The notes under the pieces are model-generated. The model did no database searches and was not told the origin of the DNA. It saw only the letters and a program-made list of their open reading frames with translations. A program made the position numbers and the translations under genes. A stretch of DNA of 64,000 nucleotides from Candidatus Hydrogenedens sp. GTDB lineage: Bacteria > Hydrogenedentota > Hydrogenedentia > Hydrogenedentales > Hydrogenedentaceae. The stretch lies in NCBI GenBank assembly GCA_049968235.1, contig JBMFRC010000001.1, positions 96,001 to 160,000 of the forward strand. Direction: 5' to 3'. The first letter of the stretch is position 1. Every line of letters begins with the position of its first letter. Positions 1-37,963 of the stretch are shown here, one piece after another.

Positions 1-307
1 CTTTACCTGCACACGAACCCGAAGGATACATGCCTTCATCGTAAAGAATTATTTTTATGTCCTTTTCATGTGCAAATTCAATAATAATTTTTAAGAAATA
101 AAGCCAACGCTCTGACATAAAACCAATGCTTTTAGGAAGTCCCATACGGGGATGTGGAATAAGTCCATATACACCATGCTTTATAAAATCATTTAAATAT
201 TCTTGAATTTTTTCCTCTTTTAATTCGTCATTTAAAAACCAGAAAGGCATTAATGAATACTTATGAGGAGGTTCTTTAATCAATTGGAGTAGTGTTTCTT
301 TTTCCAT
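1..307 (-). CDS. Partial gene running off the window edge, encoding a glycoside-hydrolase-like protein. The N-terminal 102 aa begin MEKETLLQLIKEPPHKYSLMPFWFLNDELKEEKIQEYLNDFIKHGVYGLIPHPRMGLP...ILYDEGMYPSGS.
   Basis: Manual translation of the minus strand from the ATG at 305-307 shows an open frame to position 1 and no in-frame stop for 10 codons upstream. The PFWFLNDEL...GxxGLIPHPRxGL...LYDEGxYPSG pattern is typical of the N-termini of secreted glycosidase-like TIM-barrel proteins. The family cannot be assigned from this fragment. The gene is absent from the ORF track because it is truncated. Confidence 0.35.
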   Translation of the reverse strand, partial: MEKETLLQLIKEPPHKYSLMPFWFLNDELKEEKIQEYLNDFIKHGVYGLIPHPRMGLPKSIGFMSERWLYFLKIIIEFAHEKDIKIILYDEGMYPSGSCAGK

Positions 308-369
308 GATGAATGAAACTCGATTTTTAATTGTTATATTCACAATAAAATTTCACATTTGTATATCAT

Positions 370-395
370 TATAATGTAAAATAATATATGGAGGA
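370..395 (+). promoter_or_regulatory. Candidate -10 box TATAAT at 370-375 and Shine-Dalgarno GGAGGA at 390-395, 13 nt upstream of the ATG at 409.
   Basis: Read directly from the sequence: cattataatg...atatggaggagtaaaatgaaaaaATGgca. No convincing -35 box lies at 17 bp spacing. Confidence 0.35.
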
Positions 396-408
396 GTAAA
401 ATGAAAAA

Positions 409-1260
409 ATGGCATTTGACACAGAAATATCGGAAGAAACAGTAGGTCAGGCAAGGTTATTTTCTGCAGATGTATCCCCTGACCTATGTGATGAGTTATT
501 GCGACAGTACGGGATGACTCTTTATGAAATCATTTGGTTCGAAAAAAATATAAACGATACTCAGATATTTAAATTATTGAGGCAAATATTAGACCGTGGT
601 TGTGAGCAAATCAATTCACCATCTATTTTAACTCCTAAAGTATCTCTCTTCTTTACTGCCCACCAGATTCTTAGTGAGACAATAAAAGATATAACAAATA
701 AAATTGAGACGAAAGACGATAATACTATTTTTTCAAATCCGTTAGTTCATGCCATTCGACAACTTCCGTTTGAGAAAAGATTTGTTTATTTATTAAGAAC
801 GAAAGAGAATTTTACATACAGGGATTTAGAAACGGTATCCATTCGACATCGTGATGAAATAGGTTTATTTCTTACGGAAACAAGGGAATTTTTAAGAATC
901 CAATTATGTAAAGAGTCGTTATTACCCTTTTCTAATAGTTCTGACTTATGTTCGGAAACTTATAAATATCTATCTCCGTATTTAGATAACGAACTCAATG
1001 CTCTGAATATTATGGAAATAGAGAAACACCTTTATAAGTGTGAAAAATGTCTTCAAATTCTTGCAAACCATCAATATATTCATAAACAGGTTAATAATTT
1101 ACATCTGATATCTGATAGAGAACTGTTATCTCACTTTTGGGCAGAAACGAATATAAACAAAAAACAAAAAGAATCGGCCTCCCCCGAAAATAATCAGAGA
1201 AAAACACCTCATAAAAAACATTCTCGCCTTTTCTCCTGGATACGAAACTTGTTTGGGTAG
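409..1260 (+). CDS. Regulatory protein with an ECF-sigma-like region 4 followed by a C-terminal zinc-finger anti-sigma (ZAS/zf-HC2-like) motif.
   Basis: LPFEKRFVYLLRTKENFTYRDLETVSIRHRDEIGLFLTETREFLR matches the sigma-70 region 4 pattern LPxxxRxVxLLxxxEGxSYxEIAxxLGxxxGTVKSRLHRAR. The C-terminal LSPYLDNELNALNIMEIEKHLYKCEKCLQIL matches the anti-sigma zinc-finger signature (YLDGEL...HLxxCxxC). This is the only plus-strand gene in the window, and its Shine-Dalgarno lies 13 nt upstream. Confidence 0.5.
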   Translation: MAFDTEISEETVGQARLFSADVSPDLCDELLRQYGMTLYEIIWFEKNINDTQIFKLLRQILDRGCEQINSPSILTPKVSLFFTAHQILSETIKDITNKIETKDDNTIFSNPLVHAIRQLPFEKRFVYLLRTKENFTYRDLETVSIRHRDEIGLFLTETREFLRIQLCKESLLPFSNSSDLCSETYKYLSPYLDNELNALNIMEIEKHLYKCEKCLQILANHQYIHKQVNNLHLISDRELLSHFWAETNINKKQKESASPENNQRKTPHKKHSRLFSWIRNLFG

Positions 1261-1302: not shown

Positions 1303-2244
1303 TTATTCTTTTTGTCTTTTTTCGTTATTCTTTTGAGGAATAGCAGGCAAGTAATTGTAAACCCATTCTAAAAATTCGGGGGTATCTTTTATAATTTCAA
1401 GATCGGGGTCATTTTTGGCATCATATCGAAAATCTGGGTTTTTGTCGAGTGCTTTTTTCAAATATTCTAATGCAGATTTTTTATCTCCCTGTAAGGCTTT
1501 AACACATGCAAGGTTATAATAGGGTTTCCCATGTTCAGGATAAATAGAAATGGCTTTTTTATAGTTCTCTTCGGCTTTTGTATATTCCCCTATTTCCACT
1601 AAAAAGTTTGCATAATTGTTGTAAGCATTCAAATCTTCGGGGTCTAATTTTAATGCCACCTCAAAATTTTCTTCAGCTAACTGACGGTATTGGTTATCCT
1701 TTGTATTTATATATTGGTGGCGATAGACCGTGGCTAAGAAAGAGTGATAACGGGCTTTTTGAGGATTACATTCTACTGCCCTTCTTAAATATTCTATTGA
1801 TTTTTCAATAGAGATGATATTGTATTTAAAACCAATATATCCCAGATAACAATAGGCTTCACACCAATTGGGATTTTTAGAAATAATTTCATAAAGTTGG
1901 TCAAAGGATTTAGCAAATTCCTGTTCGCGAATAAGTTGAACGGAAGAAATAAATAACGCTTCTAAAGAGGTATCCTGTTTTTTATCGATAGCAACACAGG
2001 CTTCCCGAACAATTTTTTTGGTTTGTTCATAGTATACAAGAGGGTCGTCATCCAGAGCCAATAGAGCCTTTTTTAATAAAGTGGAATAATCTTCCTGTTT
2101 CAACATATACACTGGTCGATAGATATGAAAAATATTCTGGAATTGCCTTGTTATTATTGAGAAAGGATTAAAATGTAATATAAGTGAAAGAGATAAAAAA
2201 CACAATATGAAAATAACTATGATATTTCTTACCCCTTTACTCAT
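1303..2244 (-). CDS. TPR-repeat protein with an N-terminal transmembrane anchor.
   Basis: The N-terminal hydrophobic segment is IIVIFILCFLSLSLILHF. At least five TPR-like units follow, for example AYCYLGYIGFKYNIISIEKSIEYLRRAVECNP, AEENFEVALKLDPEDLNAYNNYANFL and AEENYKKAISIYPEHGKPYYNLACVKALQGDKKSALEYLKKALDKNPDF. Confidence 0.6.
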   Translation of the reverse strand: MSKGVRNIIVIFILCFLSLSLILHFNPFSIITRQFQNIFHIYRPVYMLKQEDYSTLLKKALLALDDDPLVYYEQTKKIVREACVAIDKKQDTSLEALFISSVQLIREQEFAKSFDQLYEIISKNPNWCEAYCYLGYIGFKYNIISIEKSIEYLRRAVECNPQKARYHSFLATVYRHQYINTKDNQYRQLAEENFEVALKLDPEDLNAYNNYANFLVEIGEYTKAEENYKKAISIYPEHGKPYYNLACVKALQGDKKSALEYLKKALDKNPDFRYDAKNDPDLEIIKDTPEFLEWVYNYLPAIPQKNNEKRQKE

Positions 2245-7419: not shown

Positions 7420-10400
7420 TTAAGAAGATTCTTTTCCAACATTGAAGAATCTGGCACCTGTAGTATCAATAATATCAGGAGTCACGAAGATTAACAAGCT
7501 GGATTGTTGAACCTCTTTTGATTTTCCACGGAAGAAAAATCCGATTAAAGGAATATCCGCAAGATATGGCATTTTTTGATTGTTATGGATGGTTTTATCT
7601 TGAACTAGACCGCCCAATACCAGAGTATCACCATCATGGACAATAACATTGGTCCATGCTGCCTGCCATGAAGTAGTTGGAAGAATAATTTCTGTTTTTG
7701 TTTCTGTTGTCCCAACAACATTTTTCTGTTCAAATTTCTTTTCTCCAATTCGTGCGCGTACTTCAGGGTTTAACCATAGACGCACCTGGTCATTATCACG
7801 AATTTGTGGAGTTACAGAAAGAGCAATACCGAAGTTGAATGGACTGAATTGGGGTTGTGTAATTACGGATTGTGTTTGAGAACCTCCAAAACCTCCTTCG
7901 GTTACATATACTTCATTATATACTTGCGTGAGATAATATTCTGTCTGGAAATCAGCCACTACTGCTGGTTTTCGGTTCATCGTTGTAACACGTGGAGCGC
8001 TTAACAATTCGGACTCTCTCAAACTATTTAGGTAATCAAATGCTACACTTAACTGGTCACCATCAGCATTATCAATTATTTTGGTTATTAAACTTAAAGT
8101 TGATGCGGCCGCAGCAGGAGCAGGTGGGTTAACTAACCCTGAAATGGTTCCTTGCGTTACTGAATTACGAACTACATTACTACCATCGGGTCGAACATAG
8201 AAAGGAACTTCTTCATCAACACCATCACCATTTATATCGTAACTGTAAGTTTGTTGAGATAGATAATCATTCTGACGAACTCTATTATTTAAATCACTTA
8301 GATTTCCCGTCCAGTTGAAACCTATTTTCTTCAAATCCTCAATACGCACCGTTAAAAATTTTGCTTCAATACTTACCTGTTTGGGGGTAACATCAATCTG
8401 TCCTAAAATCTGTTCAAATTTGTCCAGGTTTGTAGGAGTATTTGTTACGATTAACATATTTGTGGCTTCATTATAAGCAATTTTAGACAACACCTCACCT
8501 GTATAGGGTTCTTTCACAGGAGGGATGGCATCGGCAAGAATCTGTAATCCGGATAATTCCGTTTCTTCAAAACCAGCACCAGCACCTAACTGTGCTGTTC
8601 CCTGGGCACCACCATAACCTGTGGCTGTGGTTCCCGTTGCTAATGTTCCTCTACCCCCCAAACCACCTATGCCGGCACCTGTACCAACTTGAGTAATACC
8701 GATAGGACCTAATTCACCAACTATTTGGTCACTAATGGTAGAAAACATATCCGAAATATTGCTTAATGTTGTAACATCTCTTCCATAACCGCCGCCATAT
8801 CCACCCATTCCACCACCATACATTCCGCCACCATATCCGCCATATCCACCCATTCCACCACCATACATTCCGCCACCATATCCGCCATATCCGCCCATTC
8901 CACCACGATATCCGCCCATTCCACCACCATACATCCCTCCGCCATATCCACCGCCATACATTCCACCGCCATATCCACCACCATACATTCCACCGCCATA
9001 TCCACCACCATATCCGCCACCGCCATACATCCCACCGCCATATCCACCGCCATACATTCCACCGCCATATCCGCCACCATATCCGCCACCGCCATACATC
9101 CCACCGCCATATCCGCCCATTCTACCTCCATAACTTACGCCATATCCGCCACCATAACCTCCACCTACCCCGCCAACACCACCGAATGGATTTCTTAATA
9201 CTAATTTAAATAGACGGTCAGAACCGACATTTCTCATTTCATAAAATCGTGTTTCTAATGCTTCGAAAGTTTCCTGACGGATAATTTCAGGTTTACTAAT
9301 CCATACAAATCCTGGTTGAACAGAGAAATCCAAACCTAAGGGACGGAGTAAAGCTTTTAATGCTTCTCTCAAAGTAACATCTTTAAGACTGATATAAGGA
9401 ACAATACCATTGGATTTTGTTCCATAATATACATCTGGAGATACTGCATAACCTTGTTGTCCGGGAGCACCCAGAGGAGCACCCAAGCCACCACCTTGAA
9501 GGCCACCCGGCGGGGCTCCGCCAGGACCTCCTCTTAAACCAATACCTCCAGGAGCGACACCGGGCCCTGCCATGGGGGGACGTACTCCTCCGGGAGCACC
9601 GAAGGGCTGTCCTGGAGCACCGGGCATACCCATCGCACCGGGTTGGGCTGGCTGGCCTGGTGTTTGTTGAGGTTGCTGTTTAGAAGGAGGTTCTACGGCA
9701 CGATTATCAATAACTATGTTTACACCGTAACTATCAGAAATAAATGTTGTAATTTCACTGATATGAATATCTTCGAACTCGATACTAACGATGGAATCTA
9801 AGGACTTCTCTATTTCACTTACTTTGGTTACGGGAGCGGTTTCTTCTTCTATTTCAGGTACTGTAAATTTATAAGGTTTTATTCCTCGTGCATCGGCACC
9901 TTCAGGAATTTGTTTCGATTTTTCTATAAATTCCCTCACTCGGGCACGGTCTTCTGAAACTTTTCTCTCTGATTCTTTTACAGATTCCTGGTGAAGTTTT
10001 ATTGTTGCTTGATGCAATCCTTCACGAGCTGTATCATTTTTAGGGTCAATCAGTAAAATATTGTTATAAATCTCTACTGCAATATCAAATTTTTGTGCTT
10101 CCATATACCGCTGGGCATCGGAAAGTAATTTTTGAACTCTTTCTTTCTTTAATTCTTCTGCATTTTTTTCGGGCATCTCACCGGGTTGCGCTGGTTGAAA
10201 GGTTTCAAAAGCGGGGAGTGGAGTCATTTCTTTCTTTTCGCCAATAGATAATTGTAGTTGAGCATTACATTTTTGTTGATAAACCTGTGCCTCTTTATGA
10301 TTTGGGTCCAATGCGAGAGCACGATTAAATTCTGTAAGGGCTTCACGATAAAGTTCTTTCTTGTATAGTCCGACACCTCTACGGAAATATGTTTCTGCGT

Positions 10401-10677
10401 TTTCTTCTGTTGCTGTATTTTCCGTAGAAGCATCGGAAAGAACTGCTTCCTGAACAGTCACCGGTGAGACAGGTGGAGATTTCTCTGCTTCCGTTTGTGC
10501 GCGAGCACCATGTGTTGTCATAAGGAATATGACAGTTATCATTGATACGAACATCATAAACCCAAAATAGAATTTTTTCGTGGTACGCATTCGTAATTTT
10601 TCCTCCCGTGGTCTTTTAACCGTTTGGAAGTTGTTATTATATCTATAATTATCTACTAAATGACATTCCTTTTTCAT
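7420..10677 (-). CDS. pilQ: PilQ-like secretin (1,085 aa) with an N-terminal signal peptide, a TPR region, a coiled coil, a Pro/Gly-rich segment, a Gly-Tyr tandem-repeat low-complexity domain and a C-terminal secretin domain.
   Basis: Secretin signatures are QVSIEAKFLTVRIEDLKKIGFNWTG, LSVAFDYLNSLRESELLSAPRVTTMNRKPAVV and DGDTLVLGGLVQDKTIHNNQKMPYLADIPLIGFFFRGKSKEVQQSSLLIFVTPDII. N0/STN-like modules are SLDSIVSIEFEDIHISEITTFISDSYGVNIVIDN and SLKDVTLREALKALLRPLGLDFSV. The gene is the last in a pilM-N-O-P-Q order. The probable true start is the internal MRTTKKFYFGFMMFVSMITVIFLMTTHGARAQ. Confidence 0.8.
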   Translation of the reverse strand: MKKECHLVDNYRYNNNFQTVKRPREEKLRMRTTKKFYFGFMMFVSMITVIFLMTTHGARAQTEAEKSPPVSPVTVQEAVLSDASTENTATEENAETYFRRGVGLYKKELYREALTEFNRALALDPNHKEAQVYQQKCNAQLQLSIGEKKEMTPLPAFETFQPAQPGEMPEKNAEELKKERVQKLLSDAQRYMEAQKFDIAVEIYNNILLIDPKNDTAREGLHQATIKLHQESVKESERKVSEDRARVREFIEKSKQIPEGADARGIKPYKFTVPEIEEETAPVTKVSEIEKSLDSIVSIEFEDIHISEITTFISDSYGVNIVIDNRAVEPPSKQQPQQTPGQPAQPGAMGMPGAPGQPFGAPGGVRPPMAGPGVAPGGIGLRGGPGGAPPGGLQGGGLGAPLGAPGQQGYAVSPDVYYGTKSNGIVPYISLKDVTLREALKALLRPLGLDFSVQPGFVWISKPEIIRQETFEALETRFYEMRNVGSDRLFKLVLRNPFGGVGGVGGGYGGGYGVSYGGRMGGYGGGMYGGGGYGGGYGGGMYGGGYGGGMYGGGGYGGGYGGGMYGGGYGGGMYGGGYGGGMYGGGMGGYRGGMGGYGGYGGGMYGGGMGGYGGYGGGMYGGGMGGYGGGYGRDVTTLSNISDMFSTISDQIVGELGPIGITQVGTGAGIGGLGGRGTLATGTTATGYGGAQGTAQLGAGAGFEETELSGLQILADAIPPVKEPYTGEVLSKIAYNEATNMLIVTNTPTNLDKFEQILGQIDVTPKQVSIEAKFLTVRIEDLKKIGFNWTGNLSDLNNRVRQNDYLSQQTYSYDINGDGVDEEVPFYVRPDGSNVVRNSVTQGTISGLVNPPAPAAAASTLSLITKIIDNADGDQLSVAFDYLNSLRESELLSAPRVTTMNRKPAVVADFQTEYYLTQVYNEVYVTEGGFGGSQTQSVITQPQFSPFNFGIALSVTPQIRDNDQVRLWLNPEVRARIGEKKFEQKNVVGTTETKTEIILPTTSWQAAWTNVIVHDGDTLVLGGLVQDKTIHNNQKMPYLADIPLIGFFFRGKSKEVQQSSLLIFVTPDIIDTTGARFFNVGKESS
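8760..9180. repeat. Tandem DNA repeat with a period of about 21-45 nt. It encodes the Gly-Tyr-Met repeat (GGYGGGMYGGGGYGGGYGGGMYGGG...) of the secretin.
   Basis: Units such as ccaccaccatacattccgccaccatatccgccatatccaccc recur many times between about 8810 and 9130. The alternate-frame ORF 8763..9131 (MAV..DMAV.. repeats) is an artefact of the same periodicity. Confidence 0.8.
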
Positions 10678-10689
10678 TTTTTTCCTACC

Positions 10690-11202
10690 TTATTTTTGCA
10701 TTTCTAATGTGAATCTTCTTCCATATTGTTCCGAATATATAACAACTGTTTTATCTTCAGGATTAACCTGTTCAAGAATAAACTGTTCAAATTCTTCACC
10801 TTCATCATACCATTTTGTTGTAGACCGGGTACGAAGTTGTGCTCGCCTCCGTTCTCCCACCTGGCGAATATTAAGTAAAGTAATTCCAAGGTCTTTGGCT
10901 GTAATTTCTTTTGAACCCGTAGAACCTGTAGATTCACCGGCAAAATACCAGAAGGGATTTTCTCTCCATAGAGAGGCATAAGTCCCGGGTATTGATGAGA
11001 GAGGAGGTGAAGGTGGCACAGGTGGTTTAAGTTCATCGGGGACCTCCTTCCGAGGAGGAGAATAAACTTCTTCTTTTTCCGGTGGAGGTGGATATGCAAT
11101 TACATATACCCGGTATCCTAAAATTCCTACCAGAATAAGTAAAACAAATCTTTCTTTGTTCCACCAGAACCATATTCCTATTTTTTGTATTTTGTCTATC
11201 AT
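10690..11202 (-). CDS. pilP: PilP-like pilus assembly protein with an N-terminal TM helix, a proline-rich linker and a C-terminal beta domain.
   Basis: It sits between the pilO-like and pilQ genes. The TM helix is FVLLILVGILGYRVYVIAY and the proline-rich segment is PPPPEKEEVYSPPRKEVPDELKPPVPPSPP. The C-terminus LLNIRQVGERRRAQLRTRSTTKWYDEGEEFEQFILEQVNPEDKTVVIY resembles the PilP/GspC-HR fold pattern, in which an R-rich strand is followed by a 'G...F..V...D.VV.' motif. Confidence 0.45.
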   Translation of the reverse strand: MIDKIQKIGIWFWWNKERFVLLILVGILGYRVYVIAYPPPPEKEEVYSPPRKEVPDELKPPVPPSPPLSSIPGTYASLWRENPFWYFAGESTGSTGSKEITAKDLGITLLNIRQVGERRRAQLRTRSTTKWYDEGEEFEQFILEQVNPEDKTVVIYSEQYGRRFTLEMQK

Positions 11203-11211
11203 AGTATATAT

Positions 11212-12183
11212 TTAATTTGTATATAAAATATATCGTTTAAACCATTTCCATGCTTTTGCAAAAAAACCTGCTTGTTCAGCAGAAGTATCTTTATTTACGG
11301 ATTGTCGTCTTTGTCCACCTGCTCCCATTTGTGTCTGATATTGAAGTTGAATATCAATACTCACCTCCTGAGGAGGTTTGTAATTTGCTTGTGAAATAAC
11401 CATTTCTATCTGGAGCAAAGGCTCTACATTATAAGCGATATAGGGATACTGAATTCTAAGGGCATTGATATGAAAATAACGGTCCGCTAATCGTAATTTC
11501 TGCTCTACAAAATTTACGAAATCTTTCATTGTCATATTACAGCGGACTCCAAACACAAAAAACGATAATAATTTCTCAAAATCGGGATGCTGTGAAATAG
11601 GAGGCCAGAAAACAATATCATCTATACTTACCATTTTGGAATCCAAAAGGTATTCACACATCTTGATACCAAAGGCGAGTTTTGCCAACTGTCTATTTAC
11701 TAATTCTTCCGTAACATCTGTTCTTGATATTTCATCAAGACTAAGTACTCCTAAAGATTTTCGTATATCCTGAGGGAACAGGTCATACCGACCCATCTTT
11801 TCTCCTACTTTTTCATACAGTTGTTTTACCATTTTTTGTGCTTGTTCTTCATACCAGAATTTTAATATAACACCTTCTTTAGGGGGAACTTCATGGTCTG
11901 TCCAGTTACTCAGATTAAAGAAGGAAGACCTTTTCTTTAAGGCATCTTCCCAGGGTATTACTTGGGCTCGCCATTCACGAATTAATACTTCGGGGTCTGT
12001 TCGTGAAAAGGTCTGTTCTAAGTCTTTCAGTGCATTTTCATATGCTTTTTTTAAATCTTCATCTTTCTTATAGGCTGTGAGTTGTTTCTGTAAGAAGAAA
12101 TAGTAAACACCTGTAAAAAGGAGGAATGAAAGGAGTAGAACGGTAATATAGATAAGGGTGCCTCTTGAAATAGTTATATTCAT
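11212..12183 (-). CDS. pilO: PilO-like bitopic inner-membrane protein, assigned by position and topology.
   Basis: It has an N-terminal TM helix (LIYITVLLLSFLLFTGVYYFFL) and then a coiled-coil region. It lies between pilMN and the pilP-like gene and overlaps pilMN by 4 nt. No family-specific motif was recognised, and at 323 aa it is longer than a typical PilO. Confidence 0.35.
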   Translation of the reverse strand: MNITISRGTLIYITVLLLSFLLFTGVYYFFLQKQLTAYKKDEDLKKAYENALKDLEQTFSRTDPEVLIREWRAQVIPWEDALKKRSSFFNLSNWTDHEVPPKEGVILKFWYEEQAQKMVKQLYEKVGEKMGRYDLFPQDIRKSLGVLSLDEISRTDVTEELVNRQLAKLAFGIKMCEYLLDSKMVSIDDIVFWPPISQHPDFEKLLSFFVFGVRCNMTMKDFVNFVEQKLRLADRYFHINALRIQYPYIAYNVEPLLQIEMVISQANYKPPQEVSIDIQLQYQTQMGAGGQRRQSVNKDTSAEQAGFFAKAWKWFKRYILYTN

Positions 12184-14270
12184 GACCCTGCTCCTCCTCC
12201 GGTGGGTGCTAAATCTTTTGCAGACACCCGTTCAAACTGCACTGTGATTATAAAGGTAAACAAATTTTGGCCGGTTGCTGAAAATGCTGCTGTCTGTCCT
12301 GTCTGCTGGGATAATGCCCCCAATCGTTGTTGACCCCCAAAACTTCCTGTTCCTGGAGCAGAACTACCTTGAAACGCAGACTGTGCATTATATAAAGAAC
12401 TCCAGGGAGTTACCTGTACGCTGGCTTCAGAAAAGTAAACTTCTTTAATTCTTAAAACACCTTCCGAAAGATTTAACGAGGCTTTCTTCAAATTATCCAC
12501 AAAACTTTTAATGATAGTATCCGAAGTCGCTAACCCTGTTATACGAAATCCATTTGAACGAGGTAGAGGTGGTGCCTGTTGTGTTCCCGGTGATTGCTGT
12601 GTTGTTGGGGGGGGAGGAACGTTATCTCTTCTAAAAAGCCCTCCACCACCTGTTCCGCCCATTCCTACCATAGGTCCATGTGAACCTATTCCGGGGAAGC
12701 CTGAAATATTAACTGGAGTTTGTTGTTGCGTTGGTATACCCATAGCCGGGATATTCCTGCCTGCTGGCATAGGTTGCCCTGCTTGCGGTTGCTGGATAAA
12801 AACCGTTTCGATGGAACTAAACCATATTCCGTCTTTATCGGTTCGGGGAGGTCTTGCGGATAGAACCAGAGACATTTCATCCAACCAATATCTTCTATTA
12901 TAAACCGCTTTATCCAGTGCCTTTACTTTGTTTTCTAAGATTTTAATTTCTGCCTGTGCCTTACTCAATTCCTGTTTTAGAGGAGACACAATCGTTGGAT
13001 TCTGGGCTACTTCGGGGTCGTACATTCGCACATATCGGCGGAGTTCTTCTATTCTAGCCTTGACAAACTTATTCTGTGATGCATGTACAGGAATCACAGA
13101 TGCCATTATCAAGGCAAGGGTAATCATGGACAATGCCCAGTAAATGGCTTGTTCTTTTCTCCTTCGTATTTCTATGATACGCGGGGGAATAAGATTAATT
13201 TCTAATGCGGTTGTTTCCCAATTACGGAGTGCTAATCCCAAAACGACGCAACTTCTTTCAGGATGTTGAGCAATGGATTGTGCATCAGGACCGATTGTAA
13301 TACCACTGAGAGGCTGGGCAATTCGCACATCTATCCCTAAGGCACGCTGGAGGAATGGCACAATATTCCGAAGAGCACATCCTCCTCCACATAAATAAAC
13401 TCGTGTTACCTGTCCTCCACCGGGAAGTGAACGGAAATAGGAAAAAGAACGTTGAATTTCGTTTACAAGACGGTTCAATACGCGTCCAATGGCTTCTCCT
13501 CCTTTACCGTCAATTTGAGGATTCCCTGTAGGTGCGAAGCCTTTTTCACATTTAATTTTCTCCGCTTCCTCAAAAGGAATATTGAAAGTATCTGCAATAG
13601 CCTGAGTAATATCATTTCCACCGATATTTAATGTTCTTGTATTACGGAAAATGCCGTCGCGTTCTACAACAATATTTGTGGTGGAAGCACCAAGGTCAAT
13701 TACTGCGACGCATTCACTATGTGCATGAAGTTCCCCGTTATATTTGAGCCAACTATACGAAGCGAAAGGAATAACATCCACAATGTCAGGACTTAATTTT
13801 AACCCTTCCACAATAGATAAGTATTTATCAACCACATCTGTTTTGATGGCAACCATCAGAACTTCATAACCCCCTCCTTCTGGATGGTCTAATATCTGAT
13901 AATCAATGGCTATCTGTTTCAAATCAAATGGAATTTGTTGTTGAATTTCATATCTAACAATCTGGTCTACTTTCCTCTCCGCTACGGGAGGAAGCGAACG
14001 AACACGAACAAATACGGATTGACCCGGAACGGCTAACATTAATTTTCTGGTTTTTACTTTTGCCTGTTTTAATAGTTCTGCAACTGCTTTCTTTCGTAAA
14101 TCTTTTCGTTCCTCTTCATCCATCCGAAAATCATTCGTTACAGGTTTCTCAAAATATTTTATCAACTGCAGTCCACTTTTTGTTTTCTTAAATTCGCAAA
14201 GACGAACCGCAGAAGTTCCTATCTCAATGATTACTCTCTTTTTTCCTTTTCTTGTCGTATATACTGACAT
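12180..14270 (-). CDS. pilMN: Fusion of PilM (actin-like ATPase fold) and PilN, with a C-terminal Gly/Pro/Gln/Thr-rich low-complexity tail of about 250 aa.
   Basis: PilM hallmarks are RVIIEIGTSAVRLCEF, VAVIDLGASTTNIVVERDG and VYLCGGGCALRNIVPFLQRALGIDVRIAQPL. The PilN hallmark EINLIPPRIIEIRRRKEQAIYWALSMITLALIMASVIPV is followed by a coiled coil. The tail begins QPMPAGRNIPAMGIPTQQQTPV and ends ...GSFGGQQRLGALSQQTGQTAAFSATGQN. Confidence 0.75.
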   Translation of the reverse strand: MSVYTTRKGKKRVIIEIGTSAVRLCEFKKTKSGLQLIKYFEKPVTNDFRMDEEERKDLRKKAVAELLKQAKVKTRKLMLAVPGQSVFVRVRSLPPVAERKVDQIVRYEIQQQIPFDLKQIAIDYQILDHPEGGGYEVLMVAIKTDVVDKYLSIVEGLKLSPDIVDVIPFASYSWLKYNGELHAHSECVAVIDLGASTTNIVVERDGIFRNTRTLNIGGNDITQAIADTFNIPFEEAEKIKCEKGFAPTGNPQIDGKGGEAIGRVLNRLVNEIQRSFSYFRSLPGGGQVTRVYLCGGGCALRNIVPFLQRALGIDVRIAQPLSGITIGPDAQSIAQHPERSCVVLGLALRNWETTALEINLIPPRIIEIRRRKEQAIYWALSMITLALIMASVIPVHASQNKFVKARIEELRRYVRMYDPEVAQNPTIVSPLKQELSKAQAEIKILENKVKALDKAVYNRRYWLDEMSLVLSARPPRTDKDGIWFSSIETVFIQQPQAGQPMPAGRNIPAMGIPTQQQTPVNISGFPGIGSHGPMVGMGGTGGGGLFRRDNVPPPPTTQQSPGTQQAPPLPRSNGFRITGLATSDTIIKSFVDNLKKASLNLSEGVLRIKEVYFSEASVQVTPWSSLYNAQSAFQGSSAPGTGSFGGQQRLGALSQQTGQTAAFSATGQNLFTFIITVQFERVSAKDLAPTGGGAGS

Positions 14271-14524: not shown

Positions 14525-15922
14525 TTACTTCTTCTGTGCAGATAAATTTTGGGATAAGTCTTTTACACATCGGAAGCCATAATCTGAACGATTTGAATCC
14601 ATTCTGTCAAAATGACGACGGGCACATCTTGCGTCAAATTTTTCTGTCATAAAGGAACCTCCCCTTAACACACGATAAATTTGCCCATACTCTTTTCGGA
14701 TATACTGATTTCCTTCATATCGCTGATACCAGTCTGAAACCCATTCATATGCATTCCCTGCCATATCAAAACAGCCATAAGGTGAAACGCCTCCAATATA
14801 ACTACCAATAGGGACAGGCATGTCAAGATTTTTTTCTTTTGTGTTACATAAATCTAATGAGAATTCGTTTCCCCATGGGTATTCTCTACCATCTTCACCA
14901 CGAGCGGCTTTCTCCCATTCAATTTCGGTGGGTAATCTTTTCCCCACTCTTGTCGCATATGACACAGCCTGGTCCCATGAAACACCCGTTACAGGGTAGC
15001 GCTCTTGTCCTTTGGGGAAAGTATACTCTGGAAAAACTTTTTTAAATTCTTCATTTGTTACTTCGTATTTATCAATATAAAATGCAGGAACAAAAACTTT
15101 TTTTCTTGGTGCTTCATCGGGAGAACGTTCATTTTCACCAAAAATAAATTCACCTGCTGGGACCAATACCATTCCTGGGGGGGTTTCTCCTTCTTTTAAT
15201 ACAAGTGTAATAGTTTGCTCTTTGTTTGGTTGAATAACAACTTTTGAATGTTCTTCAATAAAACCATCTGCAGAAATTGTGATTAAATATTCACCCGGCG
15301 CAAGTTGCAATTGTAAGGGTGTCTTTTGTGATTGAGGGACATTATTAATCCGAACAGTTCCACCTGTGGGACGAGATAGAATATTTATCGTTCCTTCCAT
15401 AGGTTTCAAGATATATTTTATTGGGTAGTGAAAATCTTCACGGACTTCTAAATCACCCTCAACAGGATAGTAATCTGCCAGTTGCAATTTATATGTTTTA
15501 TGTCCAATTTCTACAGGATATCGGAAAATGGGGGTATTTCCTATCTTCACCCCATCCAGATAAACTTCGGCTCCTGAGGGTTCGGTTTCAAAATTAATAT
15601 ATCCCTGTAACGGCTTTAATTGTAATAGATATTGAGAATGTTCTCCGGGACGAAGAAGCAATGTTTCCACTGTTCGTTGATAATGTTCCTTTTTTAATAT
15701 TACTTCGAGAGAACCGGGAGGGAGATCTGTCAATGTCAGAGGAGTAACTCCTTTTTCCTCTCCAAATACAATAACCGTTGCTCCCTGTTCTGGTGCAGTG
15801 TCTATTGTAACACTGCTTAATTGTTGTCTTTTCTTTTCAGAGGAACACGATAAAACAAGAGATACAACGACAATCCAACCTATACCCCATACTACAGCCT
15901 GCTTCATATTACTGTTAACCAT
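14525..15922 (-). CDS. Lipoprotein with PEGA-like beta domains and a C-terminal formylglycine-generating-enzyme (FGE-sulfatase/SUMF1, DUF323) domain.
   Basis: The lipobox-like sequence is SLVLSCSS. The FGE signature is GEFIFGENERSPDEAPRKKVFVPAFYIDKYEVTNEEFKKVF...YPVTGVSWDQAVSYATRVGKRLPTEIEWEKAARGEDGREYPWGNEF...LRGGSF. The N-terminal half has repeated PEGA-type modules (GATVIVFGEEKGVTP..., AEVYLDGVKIGNTP..., GTVRINNVPQSQKTP). Confidence 0.7.
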   Translation of the reverse strand: MVNSNMKQAVVWGIGWIVVVSLVLSCSSEKKRQQLSSVTIDTAPEQGATVIVFGEEKGVTPLTLTDLPPGSLEVILKKEHYQRTVETLLLRPGEHSQYLLQLKPLQGYINFETEPSGAEVYLDGVKIGNTPIFRYPVEIGHKTYKLQLADYYPVEGDLEVREDFHYPIKYILKPMEGTINILSRPTGGTVRINNVPQSQKTPLQLQLAPGEYLITISADGFIEEHSKVVIQPNKEQTITLVLKEGETPPGMVLVPAGEFIFGENERSPDEAPRKKVFVPAFYIDKYEVTNEEFKKVFPEYTFPKGQERYPVTGVSWDQAVSYATRVGKRLPTEIEWEKAARGEDGREYPWGNEFSLDLCNTKEKNLDMPVPIGSYIGGVSPYGCFDMAGNAYEWVSDWYQRYEGNQYIRKEYGQIYRVLRGGSFMTEKFDARCARRHFDRMDSNRSDYGFRCVKDLSQNLSAQKK

Positions 15923-15997: not shown

Positions 15998-18900
15998 TCA
16001 TTCTCGCTGGAACATTTTTATTCTTTGCTCTTCTTTGGGTTGAGAAGGTGCAGTAATAGATCTTTCACTACTTCCTGCAGGAGGATATATTGTTACTGTA
16101 ACTTTTGCAGGAGTAGTATCCGCTACTAACGCTCCTGTTGTCGTATCCTGAACAAAGGCACGAACTACAAAATCATATTTCACTTCTCGTTTTCTAAATC
16201 CACCTTCAGGAGAGCCTTCATCTCCCAATCGGTCATTAAATACACCTGAACCACACTGAGTCGGTGGTAAATTTAAAAATTCAGGAGTTGATGTATACCA
16301 ATTTAAGTTGAATCGAGTACTTGCCTCATTGGGAGATAAGAAATCGGATGGGATACAAATCTCTGCAGTAGTATCTCCATATAACATCGATGCTGTTCCG
16401 CCTGCTACTAAATTAGAATCCTCAAATATTTGTATATCAAACCCTATTCTTCCAGAAACAAATCCTTCTGAAGGCAGGATACAAGACATATTTAATTTTA
16501 CTTCAATACGATAATCACAGGCATTTTCTAATGCAGGCAAAGGAACTCTTCGTGAGGAGCCAAATTCTCTTTCTCCAAAGTTATAATTTATAAATCTCCA
16601 TGTAGTTGGGTCAGCGGTAGAACGGTTCCACCAGGAGTTTATATCTAATTTAGTATCAATATCGAATTCACAGGGGTTACGCCAGATACAGAATGGGACA
16701 TTGTTCCCCGTTATTGTGCCTAATGAGTTAAATCTATTTCCGAACAAAATATTTGGGATTGGTTGGACATTTCCAGCTTCATCTGCACCAATAATTGTTG
16801 CCATTAAGAGGGCGCCACAATACCGTTTATCACTCAGAATATCATTAAGTGTTGTGATTGAGCCATCAGCGAACACTATTGGGGTATTCTTATCCATACT
16901 TTCACGATTAATAATCCAACCCCATCGACCTACAAATCTATCTACAGCCTCCCAGATAGAAGTTTCATAATTGAATGGGTCTATCGCAGACCATATACGA
17001 ATACCAAAAATAGGAAGGCAGGGGTCAGAATTTACAGGTTTATCCGATACACTTCTTGTCAACTTCCATTGTATATGTGGGTCCTTGTCCCACGCACCTA
17101 TCCGTGGAGCGGAGATAATTTCTATGACAGGGTCTCTCATCCACCATAATTCGAGAGCATCCTGTTGAGCAGGATTTTCTACCACTAAATTGCCCGACAA
17201 ATCTTTAACTAAAAACTTCATACGAATATGCCAATCCAAACCGAAACCAAGATTGAACCATCTCCATTTAACTAACGCAGACTGCCATGGTTGTGTATAT
17301 TCTGTTTGAGATGGGTCTGTTGTAGCAAAATATTCAACACCTGGATTCGATGTGTATGAAAGAACCCGACCTATATCGTTTAATGGAGCAATAAACGCAC
17401 ATCCCAGTCCTCTAAAAGGTTCAAGTCCTGTATATACAGGTCCATTTGTGAGTAAATCTATTATTGGCGTAACAGTAGTTGTAGATACATTGGACCTATT
17501 TGTAATAAATCCAGCAACTTCGACAATCCTCGGCGAGCCATTATATTCTGGATATGGGTCAGAGTAACCTGCTTGCAATATATATTCAAGAGGTGATTGA
17601 GGTAGATTATTGAAAAACATTTGTGCTGTCGGTGAAGTTTGATTACTTATTGTCCCATAAGAATATGCCAGAGGATTAAGAACTGCAGGACCCCAATTGG
17701 GTGGATAACTAAATTGAGATGGTGGAGAGATAACATCATTATTTTGTATAACGAATCCTACTGCAGTAGCATCATACAAATCATTTCTTAAACGCGGTGG
17801 GACCGTATCAATTACGAATTCTGTATCTTCTAAATAAAAGTTTATTCTATATTCTTGATTGGTTCCAATACCCATCAAAGTTTGATTTACTCGTAAATAA
17901 ATTCTCGCTCTACCATTTGTTGTGGATAGCACTCCATCTGTATCTGTTACAAATAATGAATCCATTGTGAACACACTTCTTCCTCTTTGACGAGTAGTAT
18001 CTATCGGGACAACCACTTGTTTTAATTCTGTTGGAAGTTTATTTAATTGTGATAACGGATTAGGATTATTTTTAACCAGAGGGACATATTCTTCGGGTAC
18101 GAGGTATAAGGTAGCATCATCAAGAGTTTCTCCCTGAATTCCTACTTCTACGGTAAATTCATTTCCGATACCTATATCTCTTTCCCTACCAGTAGCGCTA
18201 CGAGGAACTGTAGGACTTACATTACAATAACTCCACAAAAGTTCTGCACCTCCAATAATTACTTCATCGGCACTTACTTGAATGTTACGGATATCCCGAA
18301 CTTCATTTTCAAAGTCCGTATAAGGGGAGGGACTGGCACAACTTGTGAGACTTAAATAGGGTATAAATATATTTGGGACATAATTCAGAACTGCTTCGAG
18401 AGAGACCCGTGACGGGATAGGAGTTATCAATTTTCCTATCCATGGGCTATCATAGAAATGAACGGAAAGAGGGTCTATCGTTATAGGCGTTCCTACTTCT
18501 GTAACGCCCGTAATGATTGGAGGATACACAAGATTCCACCCACTTATTAGACTGGCTCCTGGCTCACATACCAATCCACCACCGGTGTTGTTCCAGACTA
18601 AGGTTGCCATAACATAGGTGCTTCCCGTTCCTTTGCTTTCAACACCTATACCTCCATTAGAATAAATTGTGCTTTGTACTATTGCAGTGGTTCCATTATT
18701 CAATACACCATCGTTCAAACTCCCATAGATAACCGTTTGTAAAATGGAAGCCTTTCCATCTGGCATAACCACAACGCCATCATCAAGTTTAGGACCTATA
18801 AAAGAACGACTCACTTTACTCATTCCTTGTATATTTAGGATACCAGCACTACCCTGGGTAAGGGAAAGGTTCTCAATGCATAAATTACCATTGAGGTGAA

Positions 18901-21900
18901 CTTCTATCAATGGGAATTTATCTCTTGCAATTGCAATATCATCGACCATAAATATAGATTGGTCAAGAAACCTACAATTTTCGTAAACGAAATACAGAGT
19001 ATGGGGATTCGGTAATACTAATAACAATGGGATTTCCTGCAGAGACCAATCTCCTTCTTCAATACTTCCGGCATCCTTAACCCATACAGGTGTTCCCGTT
19101 GTGTCATCCCAGTAAACTTTTAACTTCGTTTGCTCGGGCGAAGTTCCTTTTTCAACACGGACATAAAATTGGAGTTTTGTTGCACTGGGAGGAATGTTTA
19201 TCCCTGTTTGCCATAGCATACGTTTATCGAGTTTTGGACTCTTTAATTGAGCATACCACACACCGGTGTGAGCATCAATAAAACCTGTTGGACCGCCCTG
19301 AATTATCTGGCTTTTATCGGGAGTAGCATCCCATGGTGTTGCTAATCCGGATTCAAATCCGGGGTCTAACAGTATGTTATCCAAACACACTATTGGAATA
19401 GCAGGCATAAGTATTTCATAACCTAAACATACATCATCAATAAGAAAACGCACAGGAGTTTTATCACACTCTGTCATTGCCACTCGAATTGTAAGACTAT
19501 GCGGTTGCATATCCAAGTAGGGTAATAATTCATTATCTACCATTACCAATGTATAGTTATTCCAGTAGAAAGTATCATTGGCTCTTATTTTCTTTATGAC
19601 ATGGTCATCCACTAAAATTTCTAATTCTGTGTTTGATGTACTGGTTGCATCAAGGATTTTTAACCAAAAACTCAATACAGGTAATGGATTAACAGCACCA
19701 AATCGTAAGGCTCGTGTTCCTGTTATAGGGGGTTCTGGCAGAATGCAATCAACAGGATATGCTTTGTCATAACAATGAATAGGTCCCATAAGTAAAGCGG
19801 TAGCATTTTTGTTCCATGCGGAATCGGGATTCGTTTCAAATGAAGGATTCTGCACTGCATTATCAGGACATACCCCAAATGGGTCTATCAGGACTCCTAA
19901 TTCACCATAAGGGCTTACGCAGAAATCATCAAATAGAATAGATGAGCCTGGATTTAATGAAAAGATTCTTGCTTTTATATGAATTGAAAAACTACTAATA
20001 CTCTCTTCCAGTAACGGAGGAACTAACCATCTCTCTATTTTTGTCCAGACTCCATCTACTGGCATCCCTGAAACCCGAGAGTCATAAACAATTTTCGTTA
20101 CTATGTTCTCATCATCATCTAACCATACCTTAAAGAAATCTTGACTTCCGTCTACATTTACAGGTTTAACTTGAAAGGAAATCTTTGCTGGAGGAACTCC
20201 TCCCAATTCTGCACAGAAAGGAGCCTTATTTCCGCCTGTGGGTTTAATTATAGTTGCGATAGTTCTTTCGGGTATAGGAGGGTTGGTAACTAATACCCAG
20301 GACTCATCATTTCCTGCTTCAAAATTTCCATTGGGAACACTAATGCCATTCTCAGGCAACCTTAAATTCATTAAAGGACCCACAAGAAAACGGACATCAT
20401 CTATATCAAAAGTGGTCGTATTAAAATCAACACTATCGGGTGTAAGAGCACAGGGAGAAACGGTGCTTTCAATATGAAAAGTATGTTTCGCATTATCATT
20501 TGTTAAAGGTGATGGTATTTTAACTAAAATACGGGTGTATTCTCCGGCGTTTGGAATTAAATCGGGTCTATATTCAGGGATAGGTATCCAGTTACCAGGG
20601 CTAATCTCCGCAAATATCTCTGAAGCCATTAACATACTATCAAAATAAAACCTTAATATATCTGTTGTTTTTCCACTGAATATTTTTATTTTTATGAACA
20701 TCTCTACCCAGACTTCCCTCGGGGATATAGGAGAAGGACCTAAAATAAGGCATCTATCAGGAGGGAGACCCAACGGGTCATTTCCAATAGACCAATTCCC
20801 TTCGCCTGACCAGCCGATACATCCAACATCATCAAAGCTACCACAGACAATTGGAATTTCGGCAGTACTCATTCCCATATCTAAAAATATACGGAAATCA
20901 TCCAGATAAACAGTATTTTCACCTATACCCAATTTTGAAATCCGAAGCACAACGATAGGTACATCTAATGGATTATACTGTTGAATTAATGAAGTAACAT
21001 CGATATTCCATGTTATCCAATTCATTGGATTGGGTATTGCGGACAAAGGAATGGTATAAGTAGTAGATTCGTTCAACATTTCAATATATATTTCGACTTT
21101 ATCTCCGGAATCCACAGGGTCCGCACTACGCATAATTTCAAATTTCAGTTGTGCGGAAACAAGGTTCGGAAGGTCAATAGGCAATTGAGCAGAAAGAGAA
21201 AGGGTATTCTCCATATAGGAGATACCTGTTGGTTCTGTGCCTTTAGGGAAATCTATAGGTTGTGTCTGAAGTATATCTATAGCAGAGAGAACCTTAGGAA
21301 AAGTAATATCTTGCCAGACTTCCGGATAACCTGCTATGAGATAGGGGTCTCCTGATAAAGGGTCTTCTGTGAACTGGAAATTTTGATATATCTGGTCAGG
21401 TTCAAAGGGTTCATTTATTCCCTTAAACGAGGCTAAATGTGTGGGACTTAAAGCAAGAGTATTTTCCTCAATAATAGAGTAGGCCGGGTCATCCGGGTCT
21501 GGTGGGTCTACAAGTATATTCCAATCTGTCGAAGGAGATAGTTCAAAATTACTATTTTTTATAACTCCTTTGAATATATTATTTCCCATGATAATGACAT
21601 CCGTAGGTAAGATAGCAGAAGAAGGAGTTGTAGGGTTAGGAACACCTTTAAGCGTAATATCGCGATTGATGATAATCGGTTGTTTAATTTCATAAATGGT
21701 AGGAGTAGTAGTATCTGCCTCAATATGAAAAGTAGTTTCTAATGGGTTATTTAAAATAATATCAATGATATTATCTCCGGGATGTATAATAGTCTCTGCT
21801 TTTATACTTGAATGTAATGTTATGAATAGCAGTAGGAAAAATAAAGGGATATTTTTTGATAACTTCTCATTTACAGAATCCGTTTTATAACCCCTTTTTC

Positions 21901-21919
21901 GTCTTATTTGTTTTTTCAT
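15998..21919 (-). CDS. Giant secreted protein (1,973 aa) at the pilY1 position of the minor-pilin operon. It is a candidate pilus-associated adhesin.
   Basis: It has a Sec-type signal peptide (NIPLFFLLLFITLHSSIKAETI) and a long uninterrupted ORF immediately downstream of the PilX_N-type giant gene, separated by a 3-nt gap. No catalytic motifs were recognised. The PilY1-like role is inferred from synteny only. Confidence 0.5.
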   Translation of the reverse strand: MKKQIRRKRGYKTDSVNEKLSKNIPLFFLLLFITLHSSIKAETIIHPGDNIIDIILNNPLETTFHIEADTTTPTIYEIKQPIIINRDITLKGVPNPTTPSSAILPTDVIIMGNNIFKGVIKNSNFELSPSTDWNILVDPPDPDDPAYSIIEENTLALSPTHLASFKGINEPFEPDQIYQNFQFTEDPLSGDPYLIAGYPEVWQDITFPKVLSAIDILQTQPIDFPKGTEPTGISYMENTLSLSAQLPIDLPNLVSAQLKFEIMRSADPVDSGDKVEIYIEMLNESTTYTIPLSAIPNPMNWITWNIDVTSLIQQYNPLDVPIVVLRISKLGIGENTVYLDDFRIFLDMGMSTAEIPIVCGSFDDVGCIGWSGEGNWSIGNDPLGLPPDRCLILGPSPISPREVWVEMFIKIKIFSGKTTDILRFYFDSMLMASEIFAEISPGNWIPIPEYRPDLIPNAGEYTRILVKIPSPLTNDNAKHTFHIESTVSPCALTPDSVDFNTTTFDIDDVRFLVGPLMNLRLPENGISVPNGNFEAGNDESWVLVTNPPIPERTIATIIKPTGGNKAPFCAELGGVPPAKISFQVKPVNVDGSQDFFKVWLDDDENIVTKIVYDSRVSGMPVDGVWTKIERWLVPPLLEESISSFSIHIKARIFSLNPGSSILFDDFCVSPYGELGVLIDPFGVCPDNAVQNPSFETNPDSAWNKNATALLMGPIHCYDKAYPVDCILPEPPITGTRALRFGAVNPLPVLSFWLKILDATSTSNTELEILVDDHVIKKIRANDTFYWNNYTLVMVDNELLPYLDMQPHSLTIRVAMTECDKTPVRFLIDDVCLGYEILMPAIPIVCLDNILLDPGFESGLATPWDATPDKSQIIQGGPTGFIDAHTGVWYAQLKSPKLDKRMLWQTGINIPPSATKLQFYVRVEKGTSPEQTKLKVYWDDTTGTPVWVKDAGSIEEGDWSLQEIPLLLVLPNPHTLYFVYENCRFLDQSIFMVDDIAIARDKFPLIEVHLNGNLCIENLSLTQGSAGILNIQGMSKVSRSFIGPKLDDGVVVMPDGKASILQTVIYGSLNDGVLNNGTTAIVQSTIYSNGGIGVESKGTGSTYVMATLVWNNTGGGLVCEPGASLISGWNLVYPPIITGVTEVGTPITIDPLSVHFYDSPWIGKLITPIPSRVSLEAVLNYVPNIFIPYLSLTSCASPSPYTDFENEVRDIRNIQVSADEVIIGGAELLWSYCNVSPTVPRSATGRERDIGIGNEFTVEVGIQGETLDDATLYLVPEEYVPLVKNNPNPLSQLNKLPTELKQVVVPIDTTRQRGRSVFTMDSLFVTDTDGVLSTTNGRARIYLRVNQTLMGIGTNQEYRINFYLEDTEFVIDTVPPRLRNDLYDATAVGFVIQNNDVISPPSQFSYPPNWGPAVLNPLAYSYGTISNQTSPTAQMFFNNLPQSPLEYILQAGYSDPYPEYNGSPRIVEVAGFITNRSNVSTTTVTPIIDLLTNGPVYTGLEPFRGLGCAFIAPLNDIGRVLSYTSNPGVEYFATTDPSQTEYTQPWQSALVKWRWFNLGFGLDWHIRMKFLVKDLSGNLVVENPAQQDALELWWMRDPVIEIISAPRIGAWDKDPHIQWKLTRSVSDKPVNSDPCLPIFGIRIWSAIDPFNYETSIWEAVDRFVGRWGWIINRESMDKNTPIVFADGSITTLNDILSDKRYCGALLMATIIGADEAGNVQPIPNILFGNRFNSLGTITGNNVPFCIWRNPCEFDIDTKLDINSWWNRSTADPTTWRFINYNFGEREFGSSRRVPLPALENACDYRIEVKLNMSCILPSEGFVSGRIGFDIQIFEDSNLVAGGTASMLYGDTTAEICIPSDFLSPNEASTRFNLNWYTSTPEFLNLPPTQCGSGVFNDRLGDEGSPEGGFRKREVKYDFVVRAFVQDTTTGALVADTTPAKVTVTIYPPAGSSERSITAPSQPKEEQRIKMFQRE

Positions 21920-31427: not shown

Positions 31428-31803
31428 TGAGCCTTACCTTAAAGGTTACCCGATACAACCCTTTACCCATAGGAACGCGTGATGCAGAAGCCCCATAATG
31501 TTGATATAGTTCATAAGCACTGGCGGTTGTTTCTATTTGCTGAAAGGCATTATCTTTTAACCATGAATTTAGACCTGTGGATAAAGCCCCGCCTACACGA
31601 ACACGACTCATTTCTGTTCGTGCTAAATTGGATATATTAGCATTTGCAGATGCATCAATTAATAATTTTTGTGCTGAGGGAAACAATGTGAATATTGCCA
31701 CCAATCCACCTGCAATAATAGCAAGGGCAATAACAATCTCTAAAATAGAGAAGCCTAATTCTTTATTTCTATAATTATTTGTATGTATTATATTTTTTTT
31801 CAT
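31378..31803 (-). CDS. pilV: PilV/GspI-like small minor pilin (141 aa).
   Basis: The prepilin N-terminus is ELGFSILEIVIALAIIAGGLVAIFTLF. It has the small size typical of PilV/GspI and sits between the FimU-like and PilW-like genes. Confidence 0.55.
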   Translation of the reverse strand: MKKNIIHTNNYRNKELGFSILEIVIALAIIAGGLVAIFTLFPSAQKLLIDASANANISNLARTEMSRVRVGGALSTGLNSWLKDNAFQQIETTASAYELYQHYGASASRVPMGKGLYRVTFKVRLNDGREERFVTYVTEQQ

Positions 31804-32684: not shown

Positions 32685-32766
32685 TTTATAACAAGTCTTT
32701 CATATTTAGAAGGGCAATGTATGTTCTACCTTCCCATACATTGCCCTTATATTAGTCAAATATTCA

Positions 32767-33639: not shown

Positions 33640-33763
33640 TCAGGTTTGTAGACGAACTTGTTTTTAATCTCGTCCTTTCTGTTATGAGTTCTTGTAAATA
33701 ATTTAACTGTTACTATATTTATACCACAAATACAGCTTTTGTTGCCGTATTTTTGTCTTATTT

Positions 33764-35005: not shown

Positions 35006-35022
35006 GGTTCCAATTCCTTTTT

Positions 35023-37941: not shown

Positions 37942-37963
37942 ATATGTATCTCCTTATATTCAA

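Follow-up and report, generated by a model that had tools for sequence, protein, structure and literature searches.

Gene organization of the locus

The window (the whole stretch of 64,000 nucleotides that was analysed) originates from a MAG of Candidatus Hydrogenedens sp., a genus that belongs to the phylum Candidatus Hydrogenedentota. Near its beginning, an ATG-initiated open reading frame (ORF) of 283 aa was found in the ORF list, and the following features of the window were assigned around it.

409..1260, plus strand: whole ORF (283 aa and the stop codon; ORF list), encoding a soluble sigma-like/ZAS anti-sigma fusion
308..408, no strand assigned: divergent intergenic region common to the ORF and the GH106 gene (alignment of four orthologous loci; L008 sequence)
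2..307, minus strand: 5' end of a GH106 glycoside hydrolase gene, divergent from the ORF
1303..2244, minus strand: gene for a membrane-anchored TPR protein, convergent on the ORF
7420-10677 and 49067-51724, minus strand: secretins
12180-14270 and 40549-42108, minus strand: PilM-like genes

The encoded protein was 100% identical to the NCBI entry 'zf-HC2 domain-containing protein [Candidatus Hydrogenedens sp.]', and this zf-HC2 assignment, which makes no mention of a sigma factor, was its only annotation in NCBI. Both the ATG at position 409 and the ribosome-binding site GGAGGAG (390-396) were conserved in the orthologous loci; an upstream mini-ORF with an out-of-frame ATG at position 401 was dismissed because it had no such conservation. 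The ORF diverges from the neighbouring gene, namely from the 5' end of the GH106 gene, and no other plus-strand gene of the window is credible (two further plus-strand ORFs reach 150 aa or more, but both sit within long minus-strand genes), as the initial annotation had noted on both points.

The same gene neighbourhood was found in all the orthologous loci inspected, the conserved neighbours being the divergent GH106 and symporter pair and the convergent TPR gene. In none of the five distinct neighbourhoods of orthologs, the most diverged at 39% identity, did a sigma gene adjoin the ORF, and no partner gene was conserved beside the ORF except the TPR gene. In the most distant ortholog locus (L008), the sigma-ZAS protein was 39% identical to that of the window, whereas the neighbouring housekeeping genes were 65-70% identical. 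The convergent TPR protein has an N-terminal hydrophobic anchor and shares 38% identity with its counterpart in L008, thus diverging as fast as the sigma-ZAS gene; this equal divergence might reflect a functional pairing of the two genes, or two genes that are both weakly constrained. A terminator-like hairpin was also found on the minus strand at 1178-1203, inside the 3' end of the sigma-ZAS ORF and approximately 100 nt downstream of the TPR stop codon; from this position, the two convergent transcripts may overlap.

In the divergent intergenic region, the boxes TATAAT (370-375) and TAAAAT (377-382) were conserved, as judged from the alignment of the four orthologous loci and from the L008 sequence, and these upstream elements resemble the -10 box of the housekeeping type. 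An ECF-type (autoregulatory) promoter was not evident in 308..408 from the alignment of the orthologous loci, the promoter scan or the L008 sequence. The sites detected by the promoter scan were no more numerous than those in shuffled sequences or expected by chance, and in the regulon search the conserved upstream box ATTATAATGTAAAATAA recurred within the window no more than by chance. The protein had been proposed to regulate the adjacent envelope or secretion genes; this link was not borne out, as no common motif was found and the conserved neighbours are the GH106-symporter pair and the TPR gene. If there are local targets at all, the GH106-symporter pair or the co-evolving TPR gene would be, speculatively, the more natural candidates.

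The rest of the window is filled by two type II secretion/type IV pilus-like gene sets on the minus strand (7420-14270 and 29640-52731), which include, in addition to the secretins and PilM-like genes listed above, two T2SSF genes, four genes for T2SSE-family ATPases, several N_methyl pseudopilins, T2SSK and T2SSC. Two adjoining giant ORFs of 1973 and 2536 aa (15998-21919 and 21923-29533) lie on the same minus strand, directly downstream of the genes for pseudopilins and type II secretion (29640-39805). One of them lacked any Pfam match at E<=1e-5, and a weak match to the Lamin Tail Domain was all that was obtained with the other. A further minus-strand ORF of 2765 aa (55399-63696) has PKD and IPT/TIG domains, and its product is probably associated with the secretion cluster, as a surface or secreted protein. 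Another minus-strand ORF (14525-15922) is unusual in its domain combination: an FGE-sulfatase (formylglycine-generating enzyme-like) domain comes after three PEGA domains.

Anti-sigma domain, linker and tail

The 283-aa protein was divided into the following parts (all on the plus strand).

478..693: three long helices (residues 24-95), sigma-2-like in the model only, with region 2 motifs unrecognisable
724..912: homologue of sigma-70 region 4 of the ECF type (residues 106-168) with an acidic recognition helix (hhalign; weak NCBIfam matches)
913..948: linker (residues 169-180) with the invariant P173-F174 (alignments; pLDDT 73-89)
949..1179: class I anti-sigma domain of the ZAS type (residues 181-257; zf-HC2, TIGR03988, hhalign and model helices)
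1180..1257: basic tail (residues 258-283) of low confidence (pLDDT below 50) and net charge +5 (charge count)

The family of this protein is small: it consists of 14 proteins at 90% clustering, and of only two 50%-identity clusters among 1.84 billion representatives. The zf-HC2/ZAS signature that the initial annotation had placed at the C-terminal side was recovered with Pfam at residues 181-214 (E 2.3e-5), where the score of 24.8 bits passes the gathering cutoff of 22.2 bits, and zf-HC2 was detected above the gathering score in 13 of the 14 family members (best E, 7.6e-9). Examination of the Cys/His pattern, as had been suggested, revealed the full ligand set of the RsrA type: the motif H-x3-C-x2-C corresponds to H207-x3-C211-x2-C214, and a fourth, upstream ligand, C181, is located 26 residues before H207 and is shared by family members and aligned fusions alike. 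The set C181-x25-H207-x3-C211-x2-C214 is thus kept across the family, and the same four residues were invariant in the mixed alignment with true sigma-ZAS fusions, whereas the cysteines outside the ZAS motif (C27, C65 and C167) were not conserved in the family. The ligands of RsrA (C11, H37, C41 and C44) have identical spacing. Note that redox sensitivity does not follow from a ZAS motif by itself (RsrA and ChrR-type proteins).

The best NCBIfam match was also to the RsrA model (TIGR03988; residues 181-228, E 8e-8), with a score of 32.2 bits that does not reach the equivalog cutoff of this model (62.5 bits). Profile-profile comparison of residues 176-250 with hhalign gave a score of 36.6, against 10.5 ± 2.1 with shuffled columns. 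In the structure model described below, four helices were predicted in the anti-sigma domain (185-192, 198-210, 212-229 and 236-257; pLDDT 86-94), in a succession that would suit a class I anti-sigma domain. At the level of sequence, therefore, the presence of a complete ZAS-type anti-sigma domain at the C-terminal side is confirmed, and zinc binding by it is predicted.

The linker that precedes this domain is equal in length, in the alignment, to that of the actinobacterial sigma-ZAS fusions. The tail that follows it ends with the short amphipathic segment LFSWIRNLF, the pattern of which is kept in the family with a variable sequence. A transmembrane segment was absent from the 283-aa protein (the top 19-residue Kyte-Doolittle mean was 0.76), and a membrane-anchored anti-sigma factor was rejected as a reading of the protein because no hydrophobic segment was present.

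Profile comparisons with sigma region 4

The initial annotation had likened the central part of the protein to an ECF sigma region 4 and proposed an hmmscan of the domains; in that search zf-HC2 was found, and Sigma70_r2 and Sigma70_r4/r4_2 had no match in this protein. More generally, no sigma domain of the 283-aa protein was matched in Pfam; Sigma70_r4_2 appeared only at E 0.12, in two of the 14 family members, and the NCBIfam matches of the region-4 part to sigma and PhyR models were weak. The PDB sequence searches performed with the full profile, the region-4 piece and the ZAS piece yielded noise only, plus RsrA (E ~0.6-0.9), which was the best anti-sigma match in these searches.

Region 4 was, in contrast to the Pfam result, supported by profile-profile comparison. 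The family sub-profile of residues 106-172 was compared with hhalign against two different ECF sets: 120 ECF-ZAS fusions, which were gathered independently, and 53 independent canonical ECFs, which were not picked via the zinc finger of the family. The score was 34.2 with the fusions (shuffled columns, 10.6 ± 1.7) and 39.1 with the canonical ECFs (probability, 91.5%; shuffled columns, 10.2 ± 1.8), i.e. the region-4 signal was approximately 14-16 standard deviations over the shuffled controls, and the sub-profile aligned in register with region 4 in both comparisons. With the family profile, a single collinear alignment with the ECF-ZAS fusions was obtained, in which residues 24-222 corresponded to positions 27-244 (probability, 96%; E 3.8e-9).

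In an exhaustive profile search of the 1.84 billion representatives, ten proteins were matched via one continuous stretch (residues ~115-225). All ten of these database proteins carry Sigma70_r4_2 and align in register, and nine have zf-HC2 directly after it; a complete set of Sigma70_r2 and r4_2 was found in three (P0031, P0049 and P0063), two of which (P0031 and P0063) also have zf-HC2. When the region-4 sub-profile was run on the database matches in a local HMM test, the ten region-4-carrying proteins ranked at the top; this test is partly circular, and the ranking was discounted because the same profile had picked those proteins, the test with the 53 canonical ECFs being used instead. The homology of residues 106-168 to region 4 is thus confirmed at the sequence level, by profile-profile comparison only. 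Absence of any sigma-70 profile hit had been named as the result that would make the protein a simple anti-sigma-like or unrelated one; such absence was formally observed with Pfam, and for region 4 it was overturned by the profile-profile comparisons together with the fold evidence.

Many residues within region 4 are invariant across the family. The segment that aligned to the -35 recognition helix (residues 149-163, DEIGLFLTETREFLR) has a net charge of -2, and the charge of this helix ranges from -2 to 0 across the family; the corresponding helix has a mean charge of +3.5 (minimum, +1) in the 53 canonical ECFs and a charge between +2 and +4 in 23 actinobacterial fusions. The -35 contact positions reported for sigmaE (R171, S172, R173, F175 and R176; Lane and Darst 2006) read G, L, F, T and E here in our own alignment.

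Region-2-like part and structure models

The stretch preceding region 4 had been described as weakly region-2-like, and this was not confirmed by sequence: hhalign of residues 1-105 against the two ECF alignments gave scores of 10.6 and 10.9, equal to the shuffled level (10.3 ± 2). Sigma70_r2 of Pfam matched neither the 283-aa protein nor any of the 14 family members, the putative region 2.2 was set in three different registers by three aligners, and the canonical motifs D-x2-Q-x2-F and W-L-x2-I-A-x-N were unrecognisable in this part. As the region-2 test was not significant, no sigma-2 domain is claimed from the sequence. What speaks for a region-2-like part is the number, length and order of the helices, the collinearity with true sigmas, and the structure model.

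AlphaFold prediction with the 14 family sequences alone was unusable (pLDDT 38). When 44 ECF and ECF-ZAS sequences were added, the best model had a mean pLDDT of 79 and a pTM of 0.75 with residues 24-257 confident, whereas scores no higher than 58-65 were reached by three of the five. In the best model, all the helices of sigma-2 and sigma-4 and their spacing are kept, and the sigma-like domains of PhyR were among the fold matches. The sigma fold in this model is compatibility and not an independent proof, because the alignment held true sigmas; on the basis of the model, we infer a sigma-2 fold for residues 24-95. The loop INSPSxLTPK, located where the -10 specificity loop would be, hardly varies in the family.

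Comparison with known systems

Fusions of a sigma factor with a zinc-finger anti-sigma domain are known in the groups ECF48, ECF52 and ECF53 of Actinobacteria and in some ECF270 (PMC8999054); SCO4117 of Streptomyces coelicolor is a studied example (PMC5826349), and the fused sigma-ZAS form is an accepted mode of ECF regulation (PMC8999054; SCO4117, PMC5826349). Our search for fusions also found more than 100 proteins with Sigma70_r2 and/or r4_2, many of them with zf-HC2 in addition. Since sigma-ZAS fusions have been described and were found by the search, the fusion as such is of a known kind, and the novelty implied in the initial annotation does not hold. The distinctive point here is the combination: a soluble protein of 283 aa, from Hydrogenedentota, with a region 2 past detection and an acidic recognition helix.

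The likeness to ECF52, ECF48 and ECF53 (e.g., SCO4117) lies in the arrangement, in one chain, of an ECF sigma core, a short linker and a zinc-finger anti-sigma domain. The actinobacterial proteins differ in that the zinc finger is followed by a membrane-spanning part of one or two helices and by large portions outside the cytoplasm (proline-rich, carbohydrate-binding, CARDB and NPCBM_assoc), their activation being thought to be proteolytic; this membrane-spanning and extracytoplasmic extension is missing in the window protein, the chain of which ends 26 residues past the anti-sigma domain. They also have a Pfam-detectable region 2 and a recognition helix of +2 to +4, whereas the window protein has neither (helix, -2). 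In SigR-RsrA, SigH-RshA and SigW-RsiW, the sigma and the anti-sigma are separate, co-transcribed proteins with an N-terminal ZAS motif, whereas here there is one chain and no partner gene; as for SigW-RsiW, the modelled arrangement of sigma-2 and sigma-4 equals that of SigW bound to RsiW. Soluble ZAS anti-sigmas occur with ECF270 and ECF271, and some ECF270 appear in the lists of sigmas that bear a regulatory extension (PMC8999054; PMC7826278); to ECF270 the window protein is likened by description, as a case of soluble ZAS regulation outside Actinobacteria with the regulator as an extension (PMC8999054).

Two further systems were considered. PhyR, which acts by sigma mimicry in the general stress response of Alphaproteobacteria, has a degenerate sigma-2/sigma-4 body that binds an anti-sigma and not DNA, and a likeness to it is suggested by the weak sequence and fold matches (NCBIfam PhyR, E 0.045); PhyR differs in having a C-terminal receiver domain, absent from the window protein, and in binding NepR in trans, and PF22233 (PhyR_sigma-like) of Pfam matched none of the 14 family members. 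ECF238 (former ECF44/ECF24; CorE and CorE2) consists of ECFs with a Cys-containing C-terminal extension and no separate anti-sigma (PMC7826278), and an ECF44-like protein had been offered as the alternative to a sigma/anti-sigma fusion. The C-terminal extension of the window protein is approximately 115 aa long and contains the zf-HC2 domain; in place of a Cys-rich extension of ~20 residues as in the CorE type, it has an anti-sigma domain of ~80 residues, predicted to form four helices, with H-x3-C-x2-C, followed by the 26-residue tail. Both the motif and the size of this full domain, where the CorE type has a short Cys-rich tail, led to the rejection of the ECF44/CorE-like reading.

Two other groups of proteins were noted in the searches. 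A second fusion lineage (P0061 and P0195-P0201; ~260-410 aa), some members of which are named Solirubrobacterales by source, has an intermediate recognition helix (0 to +2), and several of its members have region 4 and zf-HC2 with no Pfam region 2, a pattern suggesting that sigma bodies, once fused, may decay repeatedly. Five proteins of 300-390 aa (P0016, P0018, P0025, P0034 and P0053), which were the best matches to the ZAS part from outside the family, have three zf-HC2 in tandem. We know of no description of such a triple tandem zf-HC2 anti-sigma architecture.

Interpretation of the fusion

A homologue of sigma region 4 is followed by a complete ZAS domain in one polypeptide, and the idea of a covalently linked sigma and anti-sigma in the initial annotation therefore holds as architecture. 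We tentatively favour, at somewhat short of an even chance, a self-inhibited ECF-derived regulator in which the anti-sigma domain, with its zinc, would clamp the sigma-like body in cis. The protein, which lacks a membrane anchor, would descend from an ECF sigma fused C-terminally to its own class I ZAS anti-sigma domain. At rest, the predicted four helices of this domain would hold zinc via C181, H207, C211 and C214 and would dock in cis on the sigma-2-like and sigma-4 domains, giving a closed arrangement, as in the sigma/anti-sigma crystal complexes, that could not engage RNA polymerase; loss of zinc, oxidation or alkylation of thiols, or proteolysis of the C-terminal part might then open it and free the sigma-like body. 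The domain order, the homology to region 4, the conserved ZAS motif, the solubility of the protein and the lack of a separate sigma gene nearby belong to what was found at the locus, and the cis docking, the trigger and, above all, the sigma function of the freed body are inferred from them. It is doubtful that the sigma part works as a sigma and reads promoters, because the region-2 motifs are unrecognisable and the recognition helix is acidic. Against a self-inhibited sigma are also the lack of a sigma match in Pfam and PDB, the score of region 2 at the shuffled level, and the lack of an ECF-type promoter upstream.

The main rival reading, which we regard as less likely, is that the sigma body has lost promoter recognition, and perhaps the binding of RNA polymerase, its only role being to offer the ZAS domain an internal docking site or decoy. 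In that case the protein would be a partner-switch module in a single chain, a mimicry like that of PhyR without the receiver domain, which could titrate or release another factor depending on the state of zinc or thiols. Undetectable region-2 motifs, the acidic recognition helix with its changed contact positions, the housekeeping-type look of the upstream promoter and an evolution faster than that of the neighbours (39% versus 65-70% identity) all fit such a loss of function, and the PhyR matches in NCBIfam and in the fold comparison fit the mimicry. On the other hand, all the helices of sigma-2 and sigma-4 and their spacing are kept in the model, many residues of region 4 are invariant and the INSPSxLTPK loop is nearly so, no family member has a match to the PhyR_sigma-like domain in Pfam, and no partner gene except the TPR gene is conserved alongside. 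It is slightly less probable still, in our estimate, that the sigma body, having given up promoter recognition, survives only as the intramolecular partner of the zinc-thiol domain. This would be sigma mimicry in a soluble form that needs no receiver, and the output of the single-chain switch would be a protein-protein interaction in place of transcription initiation; the partner might be RNA polymerase, the TPR neighbour that co-evolves with it, or a different sigma or anti-sigma.

The protein could also be a soluble ZAS anti-sigma that acts in trans on an ECF encoded elsewhere, the N-terminal 175 residues being an accessory or sensor part with a sigma-4-like helix-turn-helix. This would agree with the NCBI annotation as a zf-HC2 protein only, with the ZAS domain being the sole part over curated thresholds, and with the existence of soluble ZAS anti-sigmas, e.g., those with ECF270/271. 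Such domains are, however, normally N-terminal in a protein encoded beside the sigma gene; we consider this explanation improbable because the domain is C-terminal here and a partner gene is absent, and the preceding part is, moreover, homologous to region 4 and collinear with the ECF-ZAS fusions, with a linker of the same length. Finally, a chance resemblance, i.e. a helical CxxC protein unrelated to sigma factors, would accord with the lack of Pfam sigma matches and the noise of the PDB sequence searches. For region 4 and the ZAS domain, the shuffle-controlled profile-profile scores effectively exclude it, and zf-HC2 in 13 of 14 members and the in-register alignment of the ten region-4 database matches also speak against it.

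Meaning for the family and the phylum

The fusion protein opens no long-standing question. Its annotation in terms of zf-HC2 only misses sigma-derived domains that have drifted under the Pfam thresholds, and its value is that of a compact model of how an anti-sigma clamps sigma-2 and sigma-4, and of a case study in the decay of sigma domains. If the sigma part is dead, PhyR would be joined by a second and independent case of sigma mimicry. If, in turn, the inhibition in cis is true, it would be a minimal, soluble sigma/anti-sigma switch made of one protein, from a candidate phylum without cultured, genetically tractable members, and would extend the 'one-component' ECF theme past the membrane-anchored fusions of Actinobacteria.
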